Origin: Clostridia bacterium
GTDB lineage: Bacteria > Bacillota > Clostridia > Oscillospirales > CAG-272
Direction: 5' to 3'
Assembly: GCA_017453285.1 (NCBI GenBank)
Contig: JAFTKL010000043.1
Span: forward strand, 1 to 41,495
Length of the DNA: 41,495 bases
In this document: piece by piece, positions 3,542-15,583 of the stretch
Position numbering within the stretch: position 1 is the first letter of the stretch
Layout of the letters: each line of letters opens with the position of its first letter
Translations under genes and position numbers: made by a program
Notes under the pieces: model-generated
Databases searched by the model: none
The model's input: only the letters and a program-made list of their open reading frames with translations
What the model was told of the DNA's origin: nothing

Positions 3542-4513
3542 ATGATAGATTTTACTTCCTTTCTGAACACGGTCATCACGATGTTCGTAATACTCGTCGT
3601 GGGATACGTGCTCGGAAAGACAAACGTAATTGACGGAGTAGCATCGAAAAAGCTCTCGAAACTGATAGTTGCCGTGGCACAGCCCGCGCTTATCATAAGT
3701 TCTATAATCAGCAAGCAGTATTCCCCCGAGAACCTCAAGCTCTCGCTGATCAGCCTTACATTCGGATTCGTGATGCACTTCATTATGTCACTCATCGCGT
3801 TCGTCGCGTGTCTGAAGATAAAGGACATCAACGAGCGCAAGGTCACCGAGTTCGCTATGGTATTCGGAAACATCGGATTTCTCGGAATTCCCGTGCTTGG
3901 CTCGCTCTTCCCCGAGAACGGCGAGTACGTCGCGTCCTTCTTCGTAGTAAGCTTCAATATTCTTCTCTGGGTGATCGGTCTTGGCATCATCGCACGCAAG
4001 CGCGACGACATCAAGCTGACCGCAAAGAAGATTTTCATCAACAAGGGCACAGTTCCCACGCTTATCGGCTATCTCGTTTTCCTTATCCCCGCGCTTCTGC
4101 CCGAGTTCACGCTCCCCGTCGTAGTCACGAAAAGCGTTGACTACATCGCGTCGCTCTGCACTCCGATATCTATGCTTATCATAGGTGCGCTTCTCTCGAA
4201 CAGATCTCTCAAGCAGATCTTCGGATCGGGCAAGGTCTACTACCTCTGCCTTTTCAAGCTGATAGTAATTCCGCTCTTCTTCTGCTTTACGCTCAAGATC
4301 CTCGGATTTTCTGACTTCTGGGTGCTCTTCATCACCGCAGTTTCGGGTATGCCCTCGGCAAGCTCGACGAGTATGTTCGCAGAGCTTTACGACACCGCTC
4401 CCGGCTTCTCAGCTCAGGGCGTAGGAACGTCCACTCTGCTCTCTCTTGCCACGATGCCCGCAGTTATACTGCTCGCAACCGAAGTTGTGAAGTGGAATAT
4501 CGCTTTATTTTAA
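3542..4513 (+). CDS. AEC (auxin efflux carrier) family transporter
   Basis: About 10 hydrophobic segments; QPALI, FGNIGFLGIPV and GMPSA motifs. Confidence 0.88.
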   Translation: MIDFTSFLNTVITMFVILVVGYVLGKTNVIDGVASKKLSKLIVAVAQPALIISSIISKQYSPENLKLSLISLTFGFVMHFIMSLIAFVACLKIKDINERKVTEFAMVFGNIGFLGIPVLGSLFPENGEYVASFFVVSFNILLWVIGLGIIARKRDDIKLTAKKIFINKGTVPTLIGYLVFLIPALLPEFTLPVVVTKSVDYIASLCTPISMLIIGALLSNRSLKQIFGSGKVYYLCLFKLIVIPLFFCFTLKILGFSDFWVLFITAVSGMPSASSTSMFAELYDTAPGFSAQGVGTSTLLSLATMPAVILLATEVVKWNIALF

Positions 4514-4542
4514 AATTTTTTTGATTTTTTGCAGCAAAGCTA

Positions 4543-4571
4543 TTGACAAAAACGCTTTACCGTGCTAAAAT
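4543..4571 (+). promoter_or_regulatory. sigma-A promoter of the aro operon leader
   Basis: TTGACA (4543-4548)-17 bp-TAAAAT (4566-4571) with TG extension. Confidence 0.85.
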
Positions 4572-4601
4572 GATTGCATCAAGTTAAAGGAGACAGTAAA
4601 A

Positions 4602-4667
4602 ATGAACCGTTTCTTCGCTAACAATTACTTTTACCTTTATTTTTATTACTTTTGCGGTAATAATTGA
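4602..4667 (+). CDS. Phe/Tyr-rich attenuator leader peptide, MNRFFANNYFYLYFYYFCGNN (21 aa; absent from the ORF track)
   Basis: AAAGGAG RBS, ATG at 4602, TGA at 4665-4667. Contains 5 Phe and 5 Tyr codons, 8 of them within 9 consecutive codons. Lies between the promoter and a terminator upstream of DAHP synthase. Confidence 0.88.
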   Translation: MNRFFANNYFYLYFYYFCGNN

Positions 4668-4751
4668 TAAGGGTGTTTTGTTGCGGGACTCGGAATTTTT
4701 TCTGACTTAAAGGTTTATCAGATATTTTTAAGCCTCTCGATGCTAAGCACC
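4632..4751 (+). promoter_or_regulatory. Attenuator protector (1:2) and antiterminator (2:3) helices
   Basis: TACCTTTAT (4632-4640) pairs with ATAAGGGTG (4667-4675), with inner stem TTATTACT/GGTAATAA. GGTGTTTTGTTGCGGGA (4672-4688) pairs 14/17 (3 G-U) with TCTCGATGCTAAGCACC (4735-4751). Paired by hand. Confidence 0.72.
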
Positions 4752-4766
4752 GAGAGGCTTTTTATT
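4730..4766 (+). terminator. Intrinsic terminator (attenuator 3:4 helix) upstream of aroF
   Basis: AAGCCTCTCG / CGAGAGGCTT 10-bp stem, inner TGC-TAA-GCA, ending in TTTTTATT. Confidence 0.88.
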
Positions 4767-4836
4767 CTTAGTACCGTCTCGGTGTTCGCATTCGGCACTT
4801 GTAATTTTTTCAGATAGTTCAAAGGAGAAAACAAAA

Positions 4837-5844
4837 ATGATCGCAGTACTTAAAAGCGGAACAAGTCAAAAACAGCTCGATAATCTCACGTCCTGGCTCA
4901 AGGCACAAGGACTCGACGTGCATATCTCTGTCGGAAACGAACACACGGTAGTAGGACTTATCGGCGACACGAGCAGGATCGACGAGGAGCTGCTCGGCAG
5001 CCTTGATATAGTTGACAGCGTAAAGCGCATCAGCGAGCCCTTCAAGAGCGCGAACAGAAAATTCCACCCCGACGACAGTATCATAAAGGTCGGCAACACC
5101 TCGGTCGGCGGCGACACCTTTGCTATCATCGCAGGCCCCTGCTCTGTTGAGAGCGAGGAGCAGGTGATGCAGATCGCAAGATCGGTCAAGGCATCGGGAG
5201 CGACTATGCTCCGCGGCGGCGCGTTCAAGCCGAGAACCTCGCCCTACGATTTTCAGGGGCTGAAGGCTGACGGCATCGAGATACTTCTTGAAGCAAAGAA
5301 GGAGACCGGACTGCCGATCGTCACCGAGATAATGAACGCAAACCATCTGCCTCTCTTCGAGGACGTCGACGTAATTCAGGTCGGAGCGCGCAATATGCAG
5401 AACTTCGAGCTTCTCAAGGAGCTCGGAAAGACTAACAAGACCATTCTTCTCAAGAGAGGTCTTGCAAACACCCTCAAGGAATTCCTTATGTCCGCCGAGT
5501 ACATTATGGCTGGCGGAAACGAAAATATCATTCTCTGCGAGCGAGGCATCCGCACATTTGAGACCTACACTCGCAACACGCTCGACCTCTCGGCTGTTCC
5601 TATGCTCAAAGAGCTGACGCATCTTCCCATCATTATCGACCCCTCGCACGCGACCGGTGTTGCCAGACTTGTCAAGCCCATGGCTATGGCGGCGGCTACC
5701 TGCGGTGCTGACGGACTTATGATAGAGGTACACAACGATCCCAAGAATGCGCTCTGCGACGGTGCGCAGTCGCTCACGCCCGAGGCGTTTGACGACGTAG
5801 CACGCGCGGTATCCCGCATACTTGCTGCGATAAAGGAGCTTTGA
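4837..5844 (+). CDS. aroF: 3-deoxy-7-phosphoheptulonate (DAHP) synthase, type I-beta with N-terminal regulatory domain
   Basis: IAGPCSVES, RGGAFKPRTSPY, GARNMQNF, DPSH, CDGAQSL. Confidence 0.96.
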   Translation: MIAVLKSGTSQKQLDNLTSWLKAQGLDVHISVGNEHTVVGLIGDTSRIDEELLGSLDIVDSVKRISEPFKSANRKFHPDDSIIKVGNTSVGGDTFAIIAGPCSVESEEQVMQIARSVKASGATMLRGGAFKPRTSPYDFQGLKADGIEILLEAKKETGLPIVTEIMNANHLPLFEDVDVIQVGARNMQNFELLKELGKTNKTILLKRGLANTLKEFLMSAEYIMAGGNENIILCERGIRTFETYTRNTLDLSAVPMLKELTHLPIIIDPSHATGVARLVKPMAMAAATCGADGLMIEVHNDPKNALCDGAQSLTPEAFDDVARAVSRILAAIKEL

Positions 5845-5845
5845 G

Positions 5846-6676
5846 ATGACTGTTGGAATTTGCGGCCTCGGACTTATCGGAGGCTCGATGGCAAAGGCAT
5901 ACAAAGCGTCGGGACACAGAGTCCTCGGCTTTGATATAGATCAGGCAACGCTCGGCTACTGCGAACTTGCGGGAATAACCGACGGTGTACTGGACGAGAG
6001 CACGATCGGCGAGTGCGAGCTTTTATTCGTAGCTCTCTACCCCACCGCCTCTGCGCGCTATCTTGAGAGCGTGGCGCATCTTATCTCTAAGGATGCGACC
6101 GTGATAGATCTGTGCGGAACAAAGGTGAAAATATGCGAGTGCGGCTTCGCGCTTGCAGATAAGTACGGCTTCAGCTTTATCGGCGGTCACCCGATGGCAG
6201 GAACGCAGTACTCGGGTATCAAGCACGCACGCGCAACCCTTTTCAAGAATGCGCCTATGGTGCTCGTTCCACCCGTGTTCGACGATATCGCTCTGCTTGA
6301 CAAGATCAAGCAGCTGCTTGCCCCCGCAGGCTTCGGTCGCTTCTCTGTCACGACGGCAGAGCGACACGACGAGATGATCGCCTTCACCTCTCAGCTTGCG
6401 CACGTGGTATCGAACGCATACGTAAAAACACCTACCGCGCAGAACCACAAGGGATTTTCCGCGGGAAGCTACAAGGATATGACGAGAGTTGCGTGGCTCA
6501 ACGAGAATATGTGGACCGAGCTATTCCTTGAGAACCGCGAGCCGCTTCTCTTTGAGCTCAATTCGATAATAAATTCTCTCTCGGAATACAGAGATGCAAT
6601 TGAAAAATGCGACGCAGACAGACTTCGCGGACTTCTCAGGGACGGCCGCGAGGCTAAGGAACGCGTCGACGGATAA
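5846..6676 (+). CDS. tyrA: Prephenate dehydrogenase
   Basis: GLGLIGGS Rossmann motif, GGHPMAG, HD..IAFTSQLAH, DMTRVA. Confidence 0.93.
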   Translation: MTVGICGLGLIGGSMAKAYKASGHRVLGFDIDQATLGYCELAGITDGVLDESTIGECELLFVALYPTASARYLESVAHLISKDATVIDLCGTKVKICECGFALADKYGFSFIGGHPMAGTQYSGIKHARATLFKNAPMVLVPPVFDDIALLDKIKQLLAPAGFGRFSVTTAERHDEMIAFTSQLAHVVSNAYVKTPTAQNHKGFSAGSYKDMTRVAWLNENMWTELFLENREPLLFELNSIINSLSEYRDAIEKCDADRLRGLLRDGREAKERVDG

Positions 6677-6697
6677 TTCTAATTTCAGGAGATCGTA

Positions 6698-7747
6698 ATG
6701 AAAAAGGTCAGAGTCAATGCGTCGTCAGCTTACGACGTGATAATAGGAAAAGGACTTCTCTCAAGCCTTGCTGAATACGTGCTTGAGGCTGTCGGTAAGG
6801 CAAAGCTTTGCATCGTCACCGACGACAACGTAGACGCGCTCTACTCGGCGGCGGCTGTAAAGTCGCTGAAGGCGGCAGGCTTCGAGGTCGAAAAATTCGT
6901 CATCGCACACGGCGAGGCATCAAAGAACACGGCAAATCTCATCTCTCTGCTCGAGTTTTTGGCAGAGCGACGCTTCACGCGCTCTGACGTGATGATCGCG
7001 CTCGGCGGAGGCGTGGTCGGAGATCTGTGCGGCTTTGCGGCAGGAGTATATCTGCGAGGCATAAGATTTATCCAAGTCCCCACCACTCTTTTGGCGGCGG
7101 TCGACTCGTCGGTTGGCGGAAAGACGGCGGTAGATCTCGCCGCAGGCAAGAACCTTGCGGGAGTTTTCCATCAGCCCTCGCTCGTTCTCTGCGACATCAA
7201 GACTCTTGACACGCTTGAGGACTCTGTCTTTGCCGACGGCTGTGCCGAGGTAATAAAATACGCTATTATCAACGACCGCGAGATGTTCGGCAGATTGCAA
7301 GGCGGAATTCGAGAGAACGTCGAGGACGTCATCGCCGATTGCGTGAAGCACAAGGCAGACATCGTCGCGCTTGACGAGTTTGACCGCGGCACGCGCCAGC
7401 TTCTTAATCTCGGTCACACGGTCGGTCACGCGATCGAGGCACTCTCAAATTTTGATATCTCGCACGGAAGCGCGGTCGCGATCGGCACGGTCATAGTCAC
7501 GAAGATCGCCGTGTCGATGGGCATATGCAACACTGAGGATCAGGTGGCGATCACTTCTCTTCTTCACAGTGTCGGACTTCCCACCGACTGCCCCTACTCC
7601 GCTCCCGAGCTCATACGTATCGCGACGGCGGACAAGAAGCGCGAGGGCGACTCGATAACGCTCATTCTCCCGAACGGCATCGGCAACTGCAGACCGCAAA
7701 AAATTGCGGTATCCGAGCTTGAGGGATACATCAGCAAAGGACTCTGA
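6698..7747 (+). CDS. aroB: 3-dehydroquinate synthase
   Basis: GGGVVGD, PTTLLAAVDSSVGGKT, KNLAG, LNLGHTVGHAIE, HGSAV. Confidence 0.97.
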   Translation: MKKVRVNASSAYDVIIGKGLLSSLAEYVLEAVGKAKLCIVTDDNVDALYSAAAVKSLKAAGFEVEKFVIAHGEASKNTANLISLLEFLAERRFTRSDVMIALGGGVVGDLCGFAAGVYLRGIRFIQVPTTLLAAVDSSVGGKTAVDLAAGKNLAGVFHQPSLVLCDIKTLDTLEDSVFADGCAEVIKYAIINDREMFGRLQGGIRENVEDVIADCVKHKADIVALDEFDRGTRQLLNLGHTVGHAIEALSNFDISHGSAVAIGTVIVTKIAVSMGICNTEDQVAITSLLHSVGLPTDCPYSAPELIRIATADKKREGDSITLILPNGIGNCRPQKIAVSELEGYISKGL

Positions 7748-7749
7748 AT

Positions 7750-9015
7750 ATGAAAGCTACACTTACTCCATCGATCGCAAACGGCGCTGTGCGTGCGATC
7801 GCGTCAAAATCAATGGCTCACCGCCTTTTGATCTGCGCGGCGTTCGCGGATGCTCCCACGACCGTGATCTGCACCGAGACGAATAACGACATTGAGGCGA
7901 CAGCCGCGTGTCTCTCGGCTCTCGGCGCGAATATAAAAAGAACGGGCGACGGCTATACGGTCGAGCCTATCGAGCGCGAGCGCATTCCCGATTCTCCCCT
8001 GCTGGAGTGCGGCGAGAGCGGCTCGACTCTGCGCTTTATGCTACCCATAGTGGCGGCACTCGGCAAGGGCGGTAGATTTGCGCTTCACGGCAGACTGCCC
8101 GAGCGTCCGCTCTCTCCTCTTCGCGAGGAACTTGAAGCACACGGAATAACGCTCCACGGCAAAGAGCTGCTGACACTTAGCGGCAAACTCAACGGCGACA
8201 GCTTCTCTATCGACGGCGGAGTTTCCTCGCAGTTCGTCAGCGGACTTCTCTTTGCGCTCTCTCTGCTCGGGCATCCGTCAACGCTGCGTATCACGGGCAA
8301 GCTCGAGTCTGCGCCCTACGTTGATATGACCTGCAACTCGCTCGCGCTCTTCGGTGCTGCACCGATAAAGACCGAGAGCGGATTTGAGATAAACGCAGGC
8401 GGCAAGCTCTCCACGCCGACGCACATCGCGGTCGAGGGTGACTGGTCGAACGCGGCTTTCCCGCTCGCGCTCGGTGTACTTTCGGGCGAGGTCGAACTAC
8501 TTGGTCTTGACCAGAATTCCGCTCAGGGCGACTCAAAGATCGTAGAGCTTCTGCGCGAATTTGGCGCGGATATAACATATATCCCCGAGCGCCGCTCGTA
8601 TATCGCCAAAAAGAGCGAGCTACACTCTATTCGCATCGACGCGTCGCAGATCCCCGACCTCGTACCGATACTCGCGACCGTCGCATCCGTGGCAAAGGGA
8701 CGCACGGAGATATACGGTGCGGCGAGACTGAGACTGAAAGAGAGCGACCGACTTGAGTCGACCGCGCAGATACTGAACGCGCTCGGCGCGTCTGTAACTG
8801 TCAGCGACGACGGACTTATGATCGACGGTGTTGACTCTCTTCGCGGCGGATACGTAGACTCCTGGGGAGACCATCGTATTGCCATGAGCGCGGCGGTCGC
8901 GTCTGCGGTGGCAAGCGCGCAGGTCACGATAGAGCGCGCAGAGGCGGTACAGAAATCCTACCCGCGCTTCTGGGATGATATGATGTCCTTGGGAATCAGG
9001 ACATCTATAATATAA
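7750..9015 (+). CDS. aroA: 3-phosphoshikimate 1-carboxyvinyltransferase (EPSP synthase)
   Basis: SKSMAHR, CGESGSTLRF, SSQFVSG, LRLKESDR, DHRIAM, KSYPRFW. Confidence 0.97.
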   Translation: MKATLTPSIANGAVRAIASKSMAHRLLICAAFADAPTTVICTETNNDIEATAACLSALGANIKRTGDGYTVEPIERERIPDSPLLECGESGSTLRFMLPIVAALGKGGRFALHGRLPERPLSPLREELEAHGITLHGKELLTLSGKLNGDSFSIDGGVSSQFVSGLLFALSLLGHPSTLRITGKLESAPYVDMTCNSLALFGAAPIKTESGFEINAGGKLSTPTHIAVEGDWSNAAFPLALGVLSGEVELLGLDQNSAQGDSKIVELLREFGADITYIPERRSYIAKKSELHSIRIDASQIPDLVPILATVASVAKGRTEIYGAARLRLKESDRLESTAQILNALGASVTVSDDGLMIDGVDSLRGGYVDSWGDHRIAMSAAVASAVASAQVTIERAEAVQKSYPRFWDDMMSLGIRTSII

Positions 9016-9018
9016 CAC

Positions 9019-9047
9019 TTGAAATATCTCAATATCTGTGATATAAT
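9019..9047 (+). promoter_or_regulatory. Internal sigma-A promoter within the aro operon
   Basis: TTGAAA (9019-9024)-17 bp-TATAAT (9042-9047) with TG extension, in the 71-bp gap after aroA. No terminator hairpin is visible in the gap. Confidence 0.75.
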
Positions 9048-9086
9048 ATATTGTTGGATATCACAGATGAAAGGAAACGAAATATA

Positions 9087-10478
9087 ATGAAAAAATACGA
9101 CGTTGTAATAATCGGCGCAGGTCCTGCGGGAATATTCACAGCACTTGAGATGTTAAAGCTCGGAAGTGACAAAAAAATACTCGTAGTTGAGAAAGGCAGA
9201 GCGATCGAAAACCGCAGTTGCCCTAAATCAAAGACCAAAAAATGCGTTTCCTGCAAACCTTATTGCCATATAACCACGGGCTTTTCGGGTGCGGGCGCGT
9301 TCTCGGACGGGAAGCTTTCGCTCTCGTACGAGGTCGGAGGCGACCTTCCCACGCTTATCGGCGAGAGCTTCGCGCAGGAAATGATAGATTACACCGACTC
9401 TATATATCTTGACTTCGGTGCCGATCCTCACGTTGAGGGCATCGGCAACAACGAAGAGGTCAAGGAGATACGCAAAAGAGCCATCAAGGCGGGACTGAAG
9501 CTGGTCGACTGCCCTATCCGCCACCTCGGCACAGAGAAAGCGCAGGAGATCTACTACGCTATCGAGCAGTATCTGCTTCGCGGCGGCGTTGAGATCAAAT
9601 TCGGATGCGAATGTGCCGACGTTATCATCAAGGACGGCGAGTGCAAGGGCGTTATTCTGCGCGAGGGCGGCAAGGAACTCGAGTGCTTTGCCGATCACAC
9701 GGTCATAGCTACCGGTCGTCGCGGCGCGGATTGGCTTGAGGAGCTTTGCGCGAAGCACAGCATCGCTCACCTGCCCGGCACGGTCGATATCGGAGTGCGC
9801 GTTGAGATACGCAACGAGATCATGGAGAGCGTGAACAACGTACTCTACGAATCGAAGCTCATCGGCTATCCTCAGCCCTTCAAGAACAAGGTGCGCACCT
9901 TCTGTCAGAACCCCGGCGGATTTGTAAGCCAGGAGAACTACGACAACGATCTCGCGGTGGTGAACGGACACTCCTACAAGGATCTCAAGTCGCCCAATAC
10001 CAACCTTGCGATCCTCTGCTCGCACAACTTTGCAGAACCCTTCAATCAGCCTATCGCGTACGCGAAAAAGGTTGGTGAGCTTACGAATATGCTTGGCGAC
10101 GGTCACATTATGGTACAGCGCTTCGGCGATATTCTTGACGGCAAGCGCACCTGGGAGGAGGAGCTTTCACGCTCCAACGTGCGCCCCACGCTTCCCGATG
10201 CGGTCGCAGGCGACATCACATCGGCTATGCCCTATCGCGCTATGACGAACATCATAAACTTCATCCAGGCTGTAGACTACGTAGTACCCGGCTTTGCATC
10301 GACCGAGACTCTTCTCTACTCGCCCGAGCTGAAGTTCTACTCCAACAGAGTCAAGATGGACTCGGATTTCAACACAAACATTTCAGGACTCCACTGCCTC
10401 GGTGACTCGAGCGGCTGGACGCGCGGACTTATGATGGCGTCTGTAATGGGCGTTCTGATGGGCAGAAAGCTGGTATAA
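9087..10478 (+). CDS. Uncharacterised FAD/NAD(P)-dependent oxidoreductase (COG2509-like) with Cys cluster
   Basis: GAGPAG FAD motif, CP-x6-CxxC-x3-C, GAGAFSDGKL, VRTFCQNPGG, VNGHS, GDSSGWTRG. AAGGA RBS precedes ATG 9087. Confidence 0.85.
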   Translation: MKKYDVVIIGAGPAGIFTALEMLKLGSDKKILVVEKGRAIENRSCPKSKTKKCVSCKPYCHITTGFSGAGAFSDGKLSLSYEVGGDLPTLIGESFAQEMIDYTDSIYLDFGADPHVEGIGNNEEVKEIRKRAIKAGLKLVDCPIRHLGTEKAQEIYYAIEQYLLRGGVEIKFGCECADVIIKDGECKGVILREGGKELECFADHTVIATGRRGADWLEELCAKHSIAHLPGTVDIGVRVEIRNEIMESVNNVLYESKLIGYPQPFKNKVRTFCQNPGGFVSQENYDNDLAVVNGHSYKDLKSPNTNLAILCSHNFAEPFNQPIAYAKKVGELTNMLGDGHIMVQRFGDILDGKRTWEEELSRSNVRPTLPDAVAGDITSAMPYRAMTNIINFIQAVDYVVPGFASTETLLYSPELKFYSNRVKMDSDFNTNISGLHCLGDSSGWTRGLMMASVMGVLMGRKLV

Positions 10479-10483
10479 TAAAA

Positions 10484-11578
10484 ATGGCTACCACTTACGG
10501 AAAAAATCTCAAATTATCAATATACGGCGGCTCGCACGACGAGTGCATCGGAGTGACGGTATCGGGACTTCCGAGTGGCATTACGGTCGACCGCGCAGAG
10601 CTTCTTCGCTTTATGGAGCGCCGCGCACCCGGACGGAGCCTGATGTCGACTCAGCGCAAAGAGCCCGATAGACCCGAATTTCTCAGCGGTGCTGTCGACG
10701 ACGGCGAGAAGATCACACTTGACGGCGGCGAGCTTCACGCGATAATCCGTAACACCTCGCAGAGATCGGCGGACTATTCAAATCTTGAATTTATCCCCCG
10801 TCCCTCGCACGCAGACTTTGCCGCAAGAATGAAGTACGGTGAGAACGTCGACCTTCGCGGCGGCGGACATTTCTCGGGCAGACTCACAGCTCCCATGTGC
10901 ATCGTGGGCGGAATTTGCCTGCAATATCTGCGCTCGCGCGGAATTGAGATAGCGGCGCACTTCTACTCGATCGGCGGCATCAAGGACAAGCCTTTTGATC
11001 TTGCCAAGGTGTCGACGGCAGATTTTGAAATATTGCGCTCACGCTCGGACTTCCCCGTTCTTAGCGAGGATGCAGGAAAACTTATGCGCGAGAAGATAGA
11101 AGAGGCACGCACCTCCCTCGACTCTGTCGGCGGCGTGGTCGAGTGTGCTATCCTCGGTGTTCCCGCGGGACTTGGCGAGCATATGTTCGACGGTGTTGAA
11201 AATCGCATCTCTGGCATAGTTTTCGGCATCCCTGCAGTCAAGGGCATCGAATTCGGCAACGGCTTTGAATGCTCGACTCTCCACGGCTCGCAGAACAACG
11301 ACCCATTTGTGACCGACGGCGAGAAAATATTCACCTCAACCAACAACGCGGGCGGCATTCTCGGAGGTATGTCGAGCGGAATGCCGATAGTCTTCCGCGC
11401 GGCGATGAAGCCGACTCCCTCTATATATCTTGAACAGGACAGCGTTGATATGGTGAGTATGAAGCCTGTCAAGCTCTCTATCAAGGGCAGACACGATCCC
11501 TGTGTGGTCGTACGCGCGCTCCCCGTCTTCGAGGCGGCAGCGGCGATCGCCTTGACCGATCTTCTGCTTGATAATTAA
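10484..11578 (+). CDS. aroC: Chorismate synthase
   Basis: GGSH, RPSHAD, GGGHFSGRLT, IPAVKGIEFG, KPTPSI, GRHDPC. Confidence 0.97.
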   Translation: MATTYGKNLKLSIYGGSHDECIGVTVSGLPSGITVDRAELLRFMERRAPGRSLMSTQRKEPDRPEFLSGAVDDGEKITLDGGELHAIIRNTSQRSADYSNLEFIPRPSHADFAARMKYGENVDLRGGGHFSGRLTAPMCIVGGICLQYLRSRGIEIAAHFYSIGGIKDKPFDLAKVSTADFEILRSRSDFPVLSEDAGKLMREKIEEARTSLDSVGGVVECAILGVPAGLGEHMFDGVENRISGIVFGIPAVKGIEFGNGFECSTLHGSQNNDPFVTDGEKIFTSTNNAGGILGGMSSGMPIVFRAAMKPTPSIYLEQDSVDMVSMKPVKLSIKGRHDPCVVVRALPVFEAAAAIALTDLLLDN

Positions 11579-11599
11579 CCCCAAAACGAAGGTAATCTT

Positions 11600-12745
11600 A
11601 TGGAACTCAACGAATTAAGACAACAGATCGATGAAATAGACCGCGAGCTCGTCTCGCTCTTCATCCGCCGTATGAATTGCTCGGCAGGCGTTGCCGAATA
11701 TAAGCGCGAGCACGATATGCCCGTGCTCGACGCATCGAGAGAGCGTGCGCTTCTCTCCAAGATCTCCGAGCTCTCGGGCGAGGAATTCGAGGAATACTCG
11801 AGAACTCTCTACTCCACCATCCTCTCGCTCTCTCGCTCCTATCAACACAAGCAGCTCGGCGAGACGACAGAGCTTTATAACGAGATCGTAAAGGCGATCG
11901 ACGAGACTCCCCGTATGTTCCCCGAGCGCGCGAACGTTGCGTGTCAGGGCGTTGAGGGAGCTTATTCGCAGATCGCGGCTGAGCGTCTCTTCTCTGCCCC
12001 AGACATCACCTTCTTCTCAAATTGGGAGGGCGTTTTCTCGGCGATCGAGGCGGGAATGTGCCGCTACGGCGTTATCCCGATAGAAAACAGCACGGCAGGC
12101 TCTGTCAAGAAGGTCTACGATCTGATGATCAGCAAGAATTTCAAGATCGTGCGCACGGTGCGCATCAAGATTGACCACTGTTTACTTGCAAAAAAAGGCA
12201 CGAAGCTCTCAGAGATCAAGGAGATCTTCTCGCACGAGCAGGCTATCAGCCAGTGCGCGTCATTTCTCGCTTCTCTTGGCAAGGACGTGAAGATCACGCG
12301 TGTTGAGAATACCGCAAAGGCGGCGCAGATGGTCGCAGACTCGGACAGAGACGACGTTGCTTCGCTCTCCTCTCGCTCTTGTGCGACTCAGTACGGACTT
12401 GACGTGATCGCAAGCGCAGTCCAGGACAACGGCAACAACCACACTCGCTTTATCTGCATTACTAACAAGCTTGAGATATACCCCGGTGCCGACCGCACCT
12501 CGCTTATGCTCGTCACACCTCACCGTCCGGGTGCGCTCTTCCGCATACTCTCGCGCTTCAACGCACTCGGGATCAACCTCATCAAGCTCGAGTCGAGACC
12601 TATTCCCGACCGCGACTTTGAGTTTATGTTCTACTTTGACCTTGAGTCCTCGGTATATTCTCCCAAGCTCGCAAGTCTCCTTTCCGAGCTCGAGCAGGAA
12701 TGCGAGGAATTTACCTATCTTGGCTCTTACTCTGAGGTGATATGA
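11600..12745 (+). CDS. pheA: Bifunctional chorismate mutase / prephenate dehydratase
   Basis: N-terminal LRQQIDEIDRELV chorismate mutase domain; PIENS, SHEQAISQC, NHTRF, KLESRP (PDT + ACT). Confidence 0.95.
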   Translation: MELNELRQQIDEIDRELVSLFIRRMNCSAGVAEYKREHDMPVLDASRERALLSKISELSGEEFEEYSRTLYSTILSLSRSYQHKQLGETTELYNEIVKAIDETPRMFPERANVACQGVEGAYSQIAAERLFSAPDITFFSNWEGVFSAIEAGMCRYGVIPIENSTAGSVKKVYDLMISKNFKIVRTVRIKIDHCLLAKKGTKLSEIKEIFSHEQAISQCASFLASLGKDVKITRVENTAKAAQMVADSDRDDVASLSSRSCATQYGLDVIASAVQDNGNNHTRFICITNKLEIYPGADRTSLMLVTPHRPGALFRILSRFNALGINLIKLESRPIPDRDFEFMFYFDLESSVYSPKLASLLSELEQECEEFTYLGSYSEVI

Positions 12746-14007
12746 TGAAATACGGATACAAGCATCTTAAATGCGGACTTATAGGCAAGAAGCTCGGACA
12801 CAGCTTCTCAAAGCCGATACATAACGCGATAGCGGATTACCCGTTCGAGCTTTACGAGCTTGCGCCCGAAGAGGTTGGAAGCTTTGTGACTGACGGTGAT
12901 CTTGACGCTTTCTGCGTTACAATTCCCTACAAAAAGGACGTTATGCCTTTTCTTGACGAGATCTCCAAAGAGGCGCTCGACATTGGCGCCGTCAACGTGG
13001 TCGTCCGACGAGATGGCAGACTTTACGGATATAACACCGATTATTTCGGATTTGACTATATGGTCAAGCGCTCGGGCGTTGAGGTCGAGGGCAAAAAGGC
13101 GATCGTTTTCGGCAACGGCGGCGCATCTGCGACTATTTGCACGCTTCTTCGCGACAAGCACGTGCGTGAGCTCGTCATCATAGGCATTGAGGACAACACT
13201 CCCGAGAATATCGCAAAGCACTCGGACGCGCAGATCGTGGTCAACGCGACTCCCGTAGGTATGTACCCGAATAACAACGTCGCGCCTACCTCTCTTTCCT
13301 GCTTTCCCGCTTGCGAGGCGGTGTTCGACGTGATCTACAATCCGTCAAAGACCGCGCTTATGCTTGAGGCAGAAAAGCTCGGCATCGCTACCGTCGGCGG
13401 TCTTTCGATGCTCGTCGCTCAGGCAGCAAGAGCATTTGAGCACTTCACGGGCGACGGTTACGAAGAAGGAATTATTGAGCAGGTCGTCTCAAAGATCACG
13501 GCACAGACGGCAAATCTTATTCTTATCGGTATGCCCGGATGCGGCAAGAGCTCGGTCGGAAAGATCATCGCCGAGAAGCTCGGACGCGAGTTCCTCGACT
13601 CTGACGAGGAATTCGAGAAGATGCACGGCATCACTCCCGCTGAAGCTATAAACACACTTGGCGAGGAGAAATTCAGACTTATGGAAACCGAGACGCTCTC
13701 CGAGATCGCAAAGCAGAGCGGCAAGGTCATCGCGACAGGTGGCGGTGTCGTAACGCAGGAGCGCAACTATCCTCTGCTCCATCAGAACGGAGTTATAGTT
13801 TTCCTTGAACGCGAGCTTCAAAATCTCGCGACCGACGGTCGTCCACTCTCGCAGAGAGGCTCGCTTGAAGCTCTCTACGCAAAGCGCATCGATCTCTACC
13901 GCGCGTTTGCCGACGTCACGCAGAAGAGCACCGAGGGCAAAGAACTGACCGCGGATGCGATAATTGAAGGATTTAAGAATTTTATCGGAGCAAAGGAGCA
14001 GATATGA
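12742..14007 (+). CDS. aroE: Fused shikimate dehydrogenase / shikimate kinase (AroE-AroK)
   Basis: GHSFS, VTIPYK, GAVN, NTDYFG, NATPVGM (AroE), then LIGMPGCGKS, DSD, FRLME, ATGGG, RPL (AroK). Confidence 0.93.
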   Translation: MMKYGYKHLKCGLIGKKLGHSFSKPIHNAIADYPFELYELAPEEVGSFVTDGDLDAFCVTIPYKKDVMPFLDEISKEALDIGAVNVVVRRDGRLYGYNTDYFGFDYMVKRSGVEVEGKKAIVFGNGGASATICTLLRDKHVRELVIIGIEDNTPENIAKHSDAQIVVNATPVGMYPNNNVAPTSLSCFPACEAVFDVIYNPSKTALMLEAEKLGIATVGGLSMLVAQAARAFEHFTGDGYEEGIIEQVVSKITAQTANLILIGMPGCGKSSVGKIIAEKLGREFLDSDEEFEKMHGITPAEAINTLGEEKFRLMETETLSEIAKQSGKVIATGGGVVTQERNYPLLHQNGVIVFLERELQNLATDGRPLSQRGSLEALYAKRIDLYRAFADVTQKSTEGKELTADAIIEGFKNFIGAKEQI

Positions 14008-14423
14008 AAATTCTCGTCATAAACGGACCTAATCTCAATATGCTCGGCATCCGCGAGCCCGATATCTACGGCAAGCAGGATTTCGACGCTTTACAGAAAT
14101 ATATACGAGAGTGCGCAGACGCGCTCTCGCTCAAGGTCACGCTCTTTCAGTCGAACCACGAGGGCGAGATCGTTGATGTGATCCAAGCGGCTTACGGCGT
14201 GTACGACGGGATCGTTATAAACCCCGCCGCTTACACCCACACGAGCGTGGCTATACTCGACGCGCTCAAGGCAGTAGGTATCCCCACCGTCGAGGTGCAT
14301 CTGTCCGACGTCAACTCGCGCGAGGAGTTCAGAAGACATTCCTTCGTCTCGCTCGTTGCTAAGAAGACTATCGCAGGTCTCGGATTTGAAGGCTATCGGC
14401 AAGCGCTTGAGTATTTTGCCTGA
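14004..14423 (+). CDS. aroQ: Type II 3-dehydroquinate dehydratase
   Basis: INGPNLNMLGIREPDIYG, QSNHEG, INPAAYTHTS, EVHLS. Confidence 0.97.
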   Translation: MKILVINGPNLNMLGIREPDIYGKQDFDALQKYIRECADALSLKVTLFQSNHEGEIVDVIQAAYGVYDGIVINPAAYTHTSVAILDALKAVGIPTVEVHLSDVNSREEFRRHSFVSLVAKKTIAGLGFEGYRQALEYFA

Positions 14424-14424
14424 T

Positions 14425-14697
14425 ATGCAGGAGAGATTTCTTGTAATCGACAAGGACGGCATCCGGCTGCTCGGATATCCTCTCCGTCTGACTCCGACAG
14501 AGACAAAGCTCCTCACGCTTATCACCGAGAGAGGTGAGGCAAGCGCACAGCTTCTCTGCTCTCTGCTGAACGAGGGTGTCGGCCGTCAGAACGTGGCGGT
14601 GCATATAAGCTCGATCAACCGCAAGGCTCAGAGCATCAGCGGAAGAAAGCTTGTTTGCTTCAAAAATAATCTTTACGGAATAAATCCGTGTATGTGA
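14425..14697 (+). CDS. Stand-alone OmpR/PhoB-type winged-helix DNA-binding protein (90 aa)
   Basis: LRLTPTETKLL...NVAVHISSINRK resembles the response-regulator C-terminal effector domain. No receiver domain. ATG lies 1 nt after the aroQ stop. Confidence 0.65.
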   Translation: MQERFLVIDKDGIRLLGYPLRLTPTETKLLTLITERGEASAQLLCSLLNEGVGRQNVAVHISSINRKAQSISGRKLVCFKNNLYGINPCM

Positions 14698-14701
14698 GTG
14701 T

Positions 14702-15340
14702 ATGAATAAGATAAATTACAGCCTTTTGCTTGAGGAAGAGATAGCGAAAATAAAAAAGAGCGGTCAGCGCAAAAGCCTTTTGCTTCACGCGTGCTGTGCG
14801 CCCTGCTCGAGCTCTGTGCTTGAGTATCTTTCAAGCTTTTTCGATATAACTCTCTATTTTTACAATCCTAATATTTCCCCCGCAGAAGAGTTCAAGTTCC
14901 GGGAGGATGAGCTGCGCAGATTGATAGGCGAGATGCCCCTGCCGAGCGAGGTAAAGCTCTTTACAGCCTACTATGACCCGAGCGAGTTTGAGGAGATCTC
15001 ACGCGGCAGAGAGGAGCTTGACGAGGGCGGCGCGCGCTGCTACGATTGCTACAAGCTCCGCCTGCGCAGTACGGCGGATATAGCAAAGCACGGCGGATTT
15101 GACTATTTTTGCACTACTCTCTCGATAAGTCCATATAAGAATGCCGAGTGGCTCAATTCTATTGGCAAGGAGCTCTCCGAAGAGTACGGCGTTGCGTATC
15201 TCTACTCTGATTTCAAGAAAAAGAACGGATATAAGCGTTCCTGTGAGCTCTCCGAGATCTATTCGCTCTACCGACAGGACTATTGCGGCTGCGAGTTTTC
15301 CAAAAAAGCGGCTGAGAGAAGAAAAAGTGAAAAAAAGTAA
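14702..15340 (+). CDS. queH: Epoxyqueuosine reductase QueH (DUF208)
   Basis: LLLHACCAPCS, FYNPNI, EGGARCYDC, TTLSISPYK, YRQDYCGC. Confidence 0.93.
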   Translation: MNKINYSLLLEEEIAKIKKSGQRKSLLLHACCAPCSSSVLEYLSSFFDITLYFYNPNISPAEEFKFREDELRRLIGEMPLPSEVKLFTAYYDPSEFEEISRGREELDEGGARCYDCYKLRLRSTADIAKHGGFDYFCTTLSISPYKNAEWLNSIGKELSEEYGVAYLYSDFKKKNGYKRSCELSEIYSLYRQDYCGCEFSKKAAERRKSEKK

Positions 15341-15391
15341 GGTGACATTCCAGATATATACGAATATTTTAAACTTTTTTCAAAAAAGGTA

Positions 15392-15420
15392 TTGACATTT
15401 GCAAACTTTTGTAGTATAAT
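15392..15420 (+). promoter_or_regulatory. sigma-A promoter of tRNA-Leu
   Basis: Perfect TTGACA-17 bp-TATAAT with upstream A/T tracts. Confidence 0.87.
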
Positions 15421-15498: not shown

Positions 15499-15583
15499 GC
15501 GAGAGTGGCGGAACTGGCAGACGCGCACGTTTGAGGGGCGTGTAGTTCACACTGTACGGGTTCAAGTCCCGTTTCTCGCACCA
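15499..15583 (+). tRNA. tRNA-Leu (GAG)
   Basis: GCGAGAGTGGCGGAACTGGCAGACGCG...; anticodon arm CACGT-TTGAGGG-GCGTG; long variable arm; GGTTCAAGTCC; encoded CCA; 85 nt. Confidence 0.95.

Follow-up and report, generated by a model that had tools for sequence, protein, structure and literature searches.

The stretch examined here, referred to as the window, is the whole 41,495 nt of contig JAFTKL010000043.1 (GenBank assembly GCA_017453285.1) of a Clostridia bacterium of the Oscillospirales. On the forward strand, which also carries all of the leader features described below, nine genes recognized by NCBIfam and Pfam matches lie at 4837–14423. These are the genes for 3-deoxy-D-arabino-heptulosonate 7-phosphate (DAHP) synthase (aroF, start 4837; NF006421, 489.8 bits), prephenate dehydrogenase (tyrA, 5846), aroB (6698), aroA (7750), a FAD-dependent protein (9051–10478), aroC (10484), chorismate mutase/prephenate dehydratase (pheA, 11600), an aroE-aroK fusion (12742) and aroQ (14004). 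All nine are on one strand and tightly spaced, and are therefore likely to be co-transcribed. The region 5' of aroF contains a candidate promoter, a short open reading frame (ORF) rich in Phe and Tyr codons, a set of competing RNA helices and an intrinsic terminator. This element is very probably a transcription attenuator of the ribosome-mediated, leader-peptide type that senses the charging of tRNA-Phe and tRNA-Tyr.

The sigma-70-type promoter, a consensus match, is at 4543–4571 (TTGACA, 17 nt, TG-n-TAAAAT), with 11 of the 12 hexamer positions matched and an extended -10 TG. It was the sole site found by a promoter consensus scan of 4300–5000, where shuffled sequences gave a mean of 0.6. A Shine-Dalgarno (SD) sequence, AAAGGAGA at 4586–4593, with its GGAG (4589–4592) 9 nt 5' of the ATG at 4602, precedes a leader ORF of 21 codons (MNRFFANNYFYLYFYYFCGNN, 4602–4667) that ends in TGA at 4665–4667. 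The ORF has five Phe and five Tyr codons and no Trp codon, so that 10 of the 21 codons specify Phe or Tyr, and the regulatory run spans codons 9 to 17 (4626–4652). This composition fits an operon that has the Phe branch, the Tyr branch and the common pathway. Among the 48,913 small ORFs of the same genome, 83 are comparably rich in Phe and Tyr, 7 of which have an SD-like motif; among these 7, an ATG start together with 10 Phe and Tyr codons is found in the aro leader alone. A scan of the genome for further leader peptides returned 15 candidates, none convincing, and also missed the aro leader itself. The whole leader (4575–4775) folds at -56.8 kcal/mol, compared with -37.9 ± 3.7 for shuffled sequences (z -5.05; none of 200 equal to it).

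The first-pass annotation proposed that mutually exclusive protector, antiterminator and terminator helices are formed by this leader, and all three are present in the sequence. In the protector, the Tyr-Leu-Tyr codons TACCTTTAT (4632–4640) pair with ATAAGGGTG (4667–4675) at 9 of 9 positions, two of them G-U; this middle part, P2, can be drawn as 4632–4641 with 4666–4675. It encloses an inner hairpin (P3, 4643–4663) that spans the end of the ORF, in which TTATTACT (4643–4650) pairs with GGTAATAA (4656–4663) at 8 of 8 positions around the loop TTTGC. The sequence of P3 differs among relatives, and it may act as a pause hairpin. The protector is longer than had been claimed, since the Phe-Ala-Asn codons (TTCGC-T-AACAA, 4614–4624) also pair in the minimum-energy folds, forming an outer part, P1, with 4678–4687: TTCGC (4614–4618) with GCGGG (4683–4687) and AACAA (4620–4624) with TTGTT (4678–4682). 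P1, P2 and the inner hairpin together have a folding energy of -22.1 kcal/mol, and the fold of the free transcript consists of the long protector and the terminator.

The terminator (4730–4766) has a stem of 4730–4739 with 4751–4760, an 11 nt loop containing a 3 bp inner stem, and a U-tract that extends to 4766. The hairpin 4730–4760 has an energy of -19.5 kcal/mol and is followed by TTTTTATT. A consensus terminator scan of 4300–5000 listed no terminator, presumably because that scan accepts loops of 3–8 nt only. The strand at 4666–4688 (GATAAGGGTGTTTTGTTGCGGGA), here called the switch strand, has two alternative partners, the leader codons in the protector or the terminator in the antiterminator. 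In the alignments described below no other non-coding stretch is as conserved, which these two partners would account for. In the antiterminator, GGTGTTTTGTTGCGGGA (4672–4688) pairs with 4735–4751 at 14 of 17 positions (RNAduplex -16.0 kcal/mol), as had been proposed. A further strand, AGGTTTA (4711–4717), pairs with TAAGCCT (4729–4735) at the foot of the terminator 5' arm, and an equivalent helix is found in relatives. The antiterminator is thus predicted to be a three-way junction that takes up the 5' arm of the terminator, its loop and the first base of its 3' arm. Its outer helix would remove the nucleation site of the terminator hairpin.

Attenuators decide while the 3' arm of the terminator is still emerging, and nascent (truncated) transcripts were therefore folded in place of full-length ones. 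With the front of the ribosome at codons 10 to 17 and the 3' end of the transcript at 4751 or 4755, 13 of the 17 proposed antiterminator pairs are in the minimum-energy structure. Those folds add the helix 4711–4717/4729–4735 and a small hairpin within the junction at 4690–4705, TCGGAA (4690–4695) with TTCTGA (4700–4705). In the alignment this small hairpin is retained with other letters, as TTGGTA/TACCAA in locus L003, TCGGT/ACCGA in L006 and CGGTA/TACCG in L089. A different small hairpin had been suggested at this place in the first-pass annotation, TCTGA (4701–4705) with TCAGA (4718–4722); the letters exist, but the pairing appears in no minimum-energy fold and is not retained in relatives. 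When the ribosome is placed at the stop codon, with its front at 4678, only 6 antiterminator pairs are left, and the terminator starts to form once its 3' arm emerges. The helix 4711–4717/4729–4735 forms at every ribosome position and is therefore not itself the ribosome-controlled part.

The features by which attenuators are recognized are found here together: a short ORF with an SD sequence, codons for the end products, a terminator before the first structural gene, and mutually exclusive protector, antiterminator and terminator. Transcription would begin at the promoter at 4543–4571, with the leader ORF being translated as RNA polymerase advances. With ample Phe and Tyr, the ribosome would reach the TGA at 4665–4667 and cover the GGTG at 4672–4675. 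On its release the switch strand would pair again with the Phe-Ala-Asn and Tyr-Leu-Tyr codons, leaving the terminator loop free, so that the hairpin 4730–4760 could nucleate and transcription would stop at the U-tract. When either amino acid is scarce, the ribosome would stall within codons 9 to 17 and occupy the 5' strands of the protector. The freed switch strand (4672–4688) could then pair with 4735–4751 while the second helix, 4711–4717/4729–4735, sequesters the foot of the 5' arm. Nucleation of the terminator would be blocked and the polymerase would continue into aroF, tyrA, pheA and the shikimate genes.

The leader is conserved in the genus. Of 41 related genomes searched with the DAHP synthase protein, 33 yielded the gene, including 22 loci of the same genus (L001–L022). 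All 22 have a Phe/Tyr leader ORF of 18–22 codons with the core F-A-N-x-(F/Y)-(F/Y)-Y-L-Y-F-Y-Y-F. Scanning one genome per species with a sequence pattern yielded 114 matches, 53 of them with such a leader, which came to 47 distinct leaders, from as many species, after deduplication and removal of chance matches. The genomes bearing these 47 are labelled as Oscillospiraceae, Clostridia or Eubacteriales metagenome genomes. Matches dropped from the scan were L055, L082, L113 and L125, considered to be chance, L039, which has no terminator, and L060 and L144, which are at contig ends. The Tenericutes-like matches (L037, L056, L061, L076 and L143) fall within coding sequence for Lon protease and are not leaders.

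Beyond the genus, 7 of 8 DAHP synthase loci from other families of the order have a Phe/Tyr-rich short ORF and a terminator before the gene, and no T-box was found in any of the 8. The remaining locus (L025, genome G029) has a promoter-like TTGACA/TATAAT near the gene and a short 5' untranslated region. A covariance model of the element, run against 151 genomes of the order, has matches in 9, one of them the source genome, and in none of 7 other genera of the family to which that genome belongs. Seven of the 8 foreign matches are Phe/Tyr leaders that precede a DAHP synthase gene, and the eighth is a plain terminator; the matches L153/L154 were dropped as plain terminator, and a tightened E-value left out five antisense matches and one weak match. 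Altogether, five other families of the order have detectable relatives of the element 5' of the gene for DAHP synthase.

Base pairing was assessed on two alignments, one of the 47 leaders made with MAFFT (A2), which replaced an earlier version (A1) that misplaced the switch strand of one subgroup, and one of 54 sequences fitted to a model of the terminated state (A4). In A2, 92.1% of the alignment cells are paired in the terminated state (43.6–50.8% in slid versions of the structure) and 10 of 36 pairs are changed on both sides, a number reached by none of 500 shuffles. The corresponding values in A4 are 92.7% (slid 43.2–46.9%) and 21 of 35 pairs (0/500 shuffles), with 12 of the 15 terminator stem pairs changed on both sides. 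For the antiterminator, 87.4% of cells are paired in A2 (slid 44.5–53.9%) and 83.2% in A4 (slid 43.6–57.3%), with 5 of 19 pairs (63/500 shuffles) and 11 of 19 pairs (0/500 shuffles) changed on both sides, respectively. At the level of single cells, 16 antiterminator cells are changed on both sides in A2 (0/500 shuffles) and 30 are changed in A4, where slid controls have at most 25. A4 carries no bias in favour of the antiterminator, because the structure to which it was fitted is the rival, terminated one. Since the structures were derived from one member, the paired fractions are inflated relative to the slid versions, and since the sequences are kin, the shuffle counts are not probabilities.

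The individual helices behave similarly. The two P1 helices have 99.1% and 86.3% of cells paired in A2, and in A4 each has 3 of 5 pairs changed on both sides. P2 is paired in 98% of cells in both alignments and is also present in all 22 protein-anchored loci. The helix 4711–4717/4729–4735 is paired in 87% (A2) and 81% (A4) of cells, and changes on both sides are seen in 2 (A2) and in all (A4) of 4 pairs. The first-pass annotation had named covariation across orthologous leaders as a check, and both conformations retain their pairing with compensatory changes.

The most telling evidence, read from the sequences, is qualitative: the terminator loop, which would normally be free to drift, stays complementary to the switch strand while both change. 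In most of the genus a switch strand of GGTG(C)TTTTT faces AAAAACACC in the terminator loop and 3' arm, and in the window GGTGTTTTGT faces GCTAAGCACC. L018 has GGTGCTT with AAGCACC, a locus of another family has AGTGATTTCTG with CAGTAAATCACT, L151 has GGCGAT with ATCGCT, and L146 has GCAATT with AATTGC.

The predicted folds of the relatives follow the position of the ribosome. With no ribosome, the GGTG (4672–4675 in the window) is paired with leader codons in all 47 orthologues, with all four bases paired in 42. With a ribosome stalled on the Phe/Tyr codons and the nascent end at the loop, it is paired with the terminator loop or 3' arm in 47 of 47. With the ribosome at the stop codon it is covered fully in 36 and partly in 11, and the distance from the first base of the stop codon to the start of the GGTG is 4–12 nt in every case. 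Two earlier proposals, that a ribosome at the stop codon would cover the start of the antiterminator strand and that a stalled one would free it, are in this way extended to the relatives. The seven leaders from other families show the same switch behaviour, with the antiterminator retained in other letters (7/7).

A number of observations weigh against this interpretation. The first-pass annotation had stated that it would be contradicted if constrained folding never favoured the helix 4672–4688/4735–4751. For full-length RNA this is what was found: at equilibrium under 22 ribosome masks the antiterminator has 0 of 17 pairs each time and the terminator keeps 7 to 9 of its 9, so that it is only on truncated transcripts that the helix is favoured. 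Once the 3' end reaches 4760 or beyond, the terminator conformer prevails at -30.2 to -30.5 kcal/mol against -25.2 kcal/mol. The terminator conformer is the more stable in 47 of 47 orthologues, by a mean of 6.9 kcal/mol (range 0.9–13.6). A terminator more stable than the antiterminator is also a property of the trpL class. Because the terminator is always favoured at equilibrium, the switch must be kinetic and must depend on kinetic trapping; the kinetic competition itself we infer. Coupling of transcription and translation is, in addition, not known for this organism.

In addition, the antiterminator duplex is only modestly unusual when taken alone: among 2000 shuffled versions of its 5' strand 5% pair at least as well, as do 2.2% of the 5925 22-mers in the window. 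A shuffled upstream stretch pairs with the terminator 5' arm equally well in 2–31% of shuffles, depending on the genus locus, and in the same test three other-family loci (L026, L028 and L029) show no excess (41–100%). The 5 double-changed antiterminator pairs on A2 were, as given above, reached in 63 of 500 shuffles, and the covariation of one slid control (+3) is 0.113 compared with 0.103 for the antiterminator. The fraction of the terminator 5' arm that is paired upstream differs little with the ribosome, with means of 0.54 with no ribosome, 0.62 at the stop codon and 0.70 when stalled. In the models, just the outer helix of the antiterminator, from the GGTG to the loop, is clearly ribosome-controlled. 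Both P2 strands were part of the pattern that retrieved 25 of the 47 sequences, and the invariance of P2 in those is therefore not independent. Metatranscriptome contigs, mostly 90–95% alike, cover the leader, one at 4592–4789 (X5, record 22) and one at 4441–5048 (X1, record 2), but these are assembled contigs that are uninformative on starts, ends, strand and levels, and are possibly derived from DNA.

Some of these points would also fit an attenuator whose working antiterminator is made up of local helices only (4684–4687/4736–4739 and 4711–4717/4729–4735) or of another pairing. Local helices form in the truncated folds at every ribosome position, the long-range duplex is only 2–5% unusual in the single sequence, and on the MAFFT alignment it covaries modestly. 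A helix that is present in every state, however, cannot carry the signal. It is the GGTG-to-loop pairing alone that switches with ribosome position (47/47), and this pairing is retained with different letters in other families (7/7), with 11 of 19 antiterminator pairs double-changed on the alignment fitted to the competing structure. An antiterminator of local helices is therefore considered unlikely. A switch strand read not by the ribosome but by a tRNA as in a T-box, by an RNA-binding protein of the TRAP or PyrR kind, or by Phe/Tyr directly as in a riboswitch, with the short ORF being incidental, is very unlikely. The unusual conservation of the switch strand would agree with such a sensor, as would weak matches below the gathering threshold, one to PyrR (22.9 bits, E 0.5, against 54) and others to leader families, and T-boxes are used elsewhere in the genome. 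The conservation is, however, already accounted for by the two alternative partners, and no T-box match was found at 4480–4860 even at E ≤10. Likewise, Phe/Tyr-rich ORFs with an SD sequence are rare in the genome (7/48,913) yet recur before DAHP synthase in lineages with differing RNA sequence, and the 4–12 nt spacing from the stop codon to the GGTG is fixed.

The strong conservation of the peptide core F-A-N-x-F/Y-Y-L-Y-F-Y-Y-F within the genus raises the question of whether the product is itself functional, as a hydrophobic micropeptide whose gene has its own terminator and no regulated read-through into the aro genes. At synonymous positions, too, there is no variation (CCTTTATTTTTA in all 22 protein-anchored loci), which indicates constraint at the level of the RNA, and other families retain the Phe/Tyr richness but not the peptide sequence. 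The consensus scan of 4300–5000 found no promoter between the terminator and the DAHP synthase start from which the operon could be separately transcribed, and the position before DAHP synthase recurs in 7 of 8 other-family loci. A micropeptide gene is accordingly the least probable of these explanations and is considered very unlikely. An arrest peptide of the TnaC type that senses the free amino acid was rejected on logic, as such a peptide would turn biosynthesis on in the presence of ample amino acid. A leader-peptide attenuator remains the explanation that is preferred here.

With Rfam 15 there is no match at the leader at the gathering threshold; the Phe_leader model (RF01859) gives 22.7 bits (E 0.14) against a gathering threshold of 55, so that the leader is not a member, and His_leader is also sub-threshold (17.8 bits against 49). 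The T-box model (RF00230), which is without a match in 4480–4860, has 7 matches in other parts of the genome, in C94 (three sites), C6, C64, C34 and C43, and 3 of the 7 exceed the cut-off. The organism therefore has T-box sensing beside leader-peptide sensing.

In its logic the element resembles pheL-pheA (RF01859) and trpL/hisL, having four strands, regulatory codons in strand 1 and mutually exclusive protector, antiterminator and terminator. It differs from the pheL-pheA class in its mixed Phe and Tyr codons, in a three-way-junction antiterminator that takes up the terminator loop, and in the presence of a fifth strand downstream. One of the two closest described arrangements is the aroR leader (Phe-Tyr-Phe) upstream of aroF in Corynebacterium glutamicum, where ribosome stalling is reported to enhance transcription (PMC11802643, PMC4046766). 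As described, both have a short leader ORF with mixed Phe/Tyr codons before a DAHP synthase gene. The C. glutamicum leader is from the Actinobacteria, has three aromatic codons rather than ten, is described as responding to Phe and not to Tyr, and serves a smaller unit than the nine-gene operon with pheA and tyrA found here.

The other, the uORFC-13-1 motif, is described upstream of aroF in Acholeplasma and in unknown or environmental organisms, with 24 representatives and 'at least one' Phe (PMC8632094). It shares with the present leader a predicted uORF, a promoter, a ribosome-binding site and Phe codons directly before an intrinsic terminator and aroF, as well as a further base-paired element (PMC8632094). 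The difference lies in the Phe/Tyr run and in the Oscillospiraceae-labelled genomes, although the comparison is with the description and an overlap in members is possible (PMC8632094). No family named uORFC-13-1 was among the Rfam matches at the leader, at the gathering threshold or at E ≤10. Within the Firmicutes, leader peptides for His are reported in the Bacillus cereus group, the Peptostreptococcaceae and the Erysipelotrichales (PMC2965389, PMC9413887), and the ilv-leu leader of Staphylococcus aureus is likewise reported as an attenuator (PMC5794164). As described there, these are cases of ribosome-mediated attenuation beside T-boxes that concern other amino acids and operons, none of them aromatic. 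Full-text searching, in a coverage that leaves out most subscription journals and supplements, gave no account of aromatic leaders from the Oscillospiraceae or elsewhere in the Clostridia.

The mechanism is a textbook one, of which this version is not catalogued in this lineage of gut Clostridia. Amino acid operons of Clostridia are usually assigned to T-boxes or to protein regulators, and the aro leader adds a well-resolved case of ribosome-sensed attenuation supported by covariation. In an uncultured lineage of the ruminant gut, the entire shikimate, Phe and Tyr pathway appears to be governed by one leader with mixed Phe and Tyr codons. A curated family model would improve the annotation of many genomes from gut metagenomes. 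Having two supported conformations, an antiterminator that takes up the loop, and a fifth strand, the element is also a good subject for work on kinetic competition and on the coupling of transcription and translation.

The fifth strand, TCTCGGTGT at 4777–4785, is 11 nt past the U-tract and is complementary to the 3' arm of the terminator at 4747–4755 (duplex -17.6 kcal/mol). In 18 of the 22 genus loci this complementarity is stronger than in at least 95% of shuffles, and it covaries with the type of terminator. The fifth strand cannot affect termination. Control of access to the aroF SD sequence was considered and rejected, as the SD sequence is more open in 1 and less open in 8 of the 22 loci. 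It is suggested, tentatively and with little confidence, that the element is a five-strand attenuator in which 4777–4785 captures the terminator 3' arm in read-through RNA, and that Phe/Tyr leaders across families imply ribosome-polymerase coupling. Were this so, the fifth strand would block the re-formation of the more stable terminator in read-through RNA, and induced transcripts would gain a 5' structure of their own, for example for stability or processing. The spread of Phe/Tyr leaders over several families would then mean that these gut Clostridia depend on coupling. Such coupling is reported to be absent in Bacillus subtilis.

Among the neighbouring genes, the FAD-dependent protein encoded between aroA and aroC (9051–10478) matches PF21688, PF00890 and PF07992, with no NCBIfam match above the cut-off. 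A 90-amino-acid ORF (14425–14697) between aroQ and queH has no Pfam match at E ≤0.01; its sequence (…LTPTETKLL…) looks by eye somewhat like an OmpR-type winged-helix DNA-binding domain, which it may be. The gene for the epoxyqueuosine reductase QueH (14702–15340; PF02677, E 3e-67) is directly after the aro operon. Queuosine modifies tRNAs with GUN anticodons, including tRNA-Tyr. Downstream of the operon and queH is a tRNA-Leu(GAG) gene (15499–15583) that, by eye, has its own promoter-like TTGACA/TATAAT at about 15391–15420. This tRNA reads CUU and CUC, and CTT is the sole invariant non-aromatic codon within the leader Phe/Tyr run, which is probably a coincidence.

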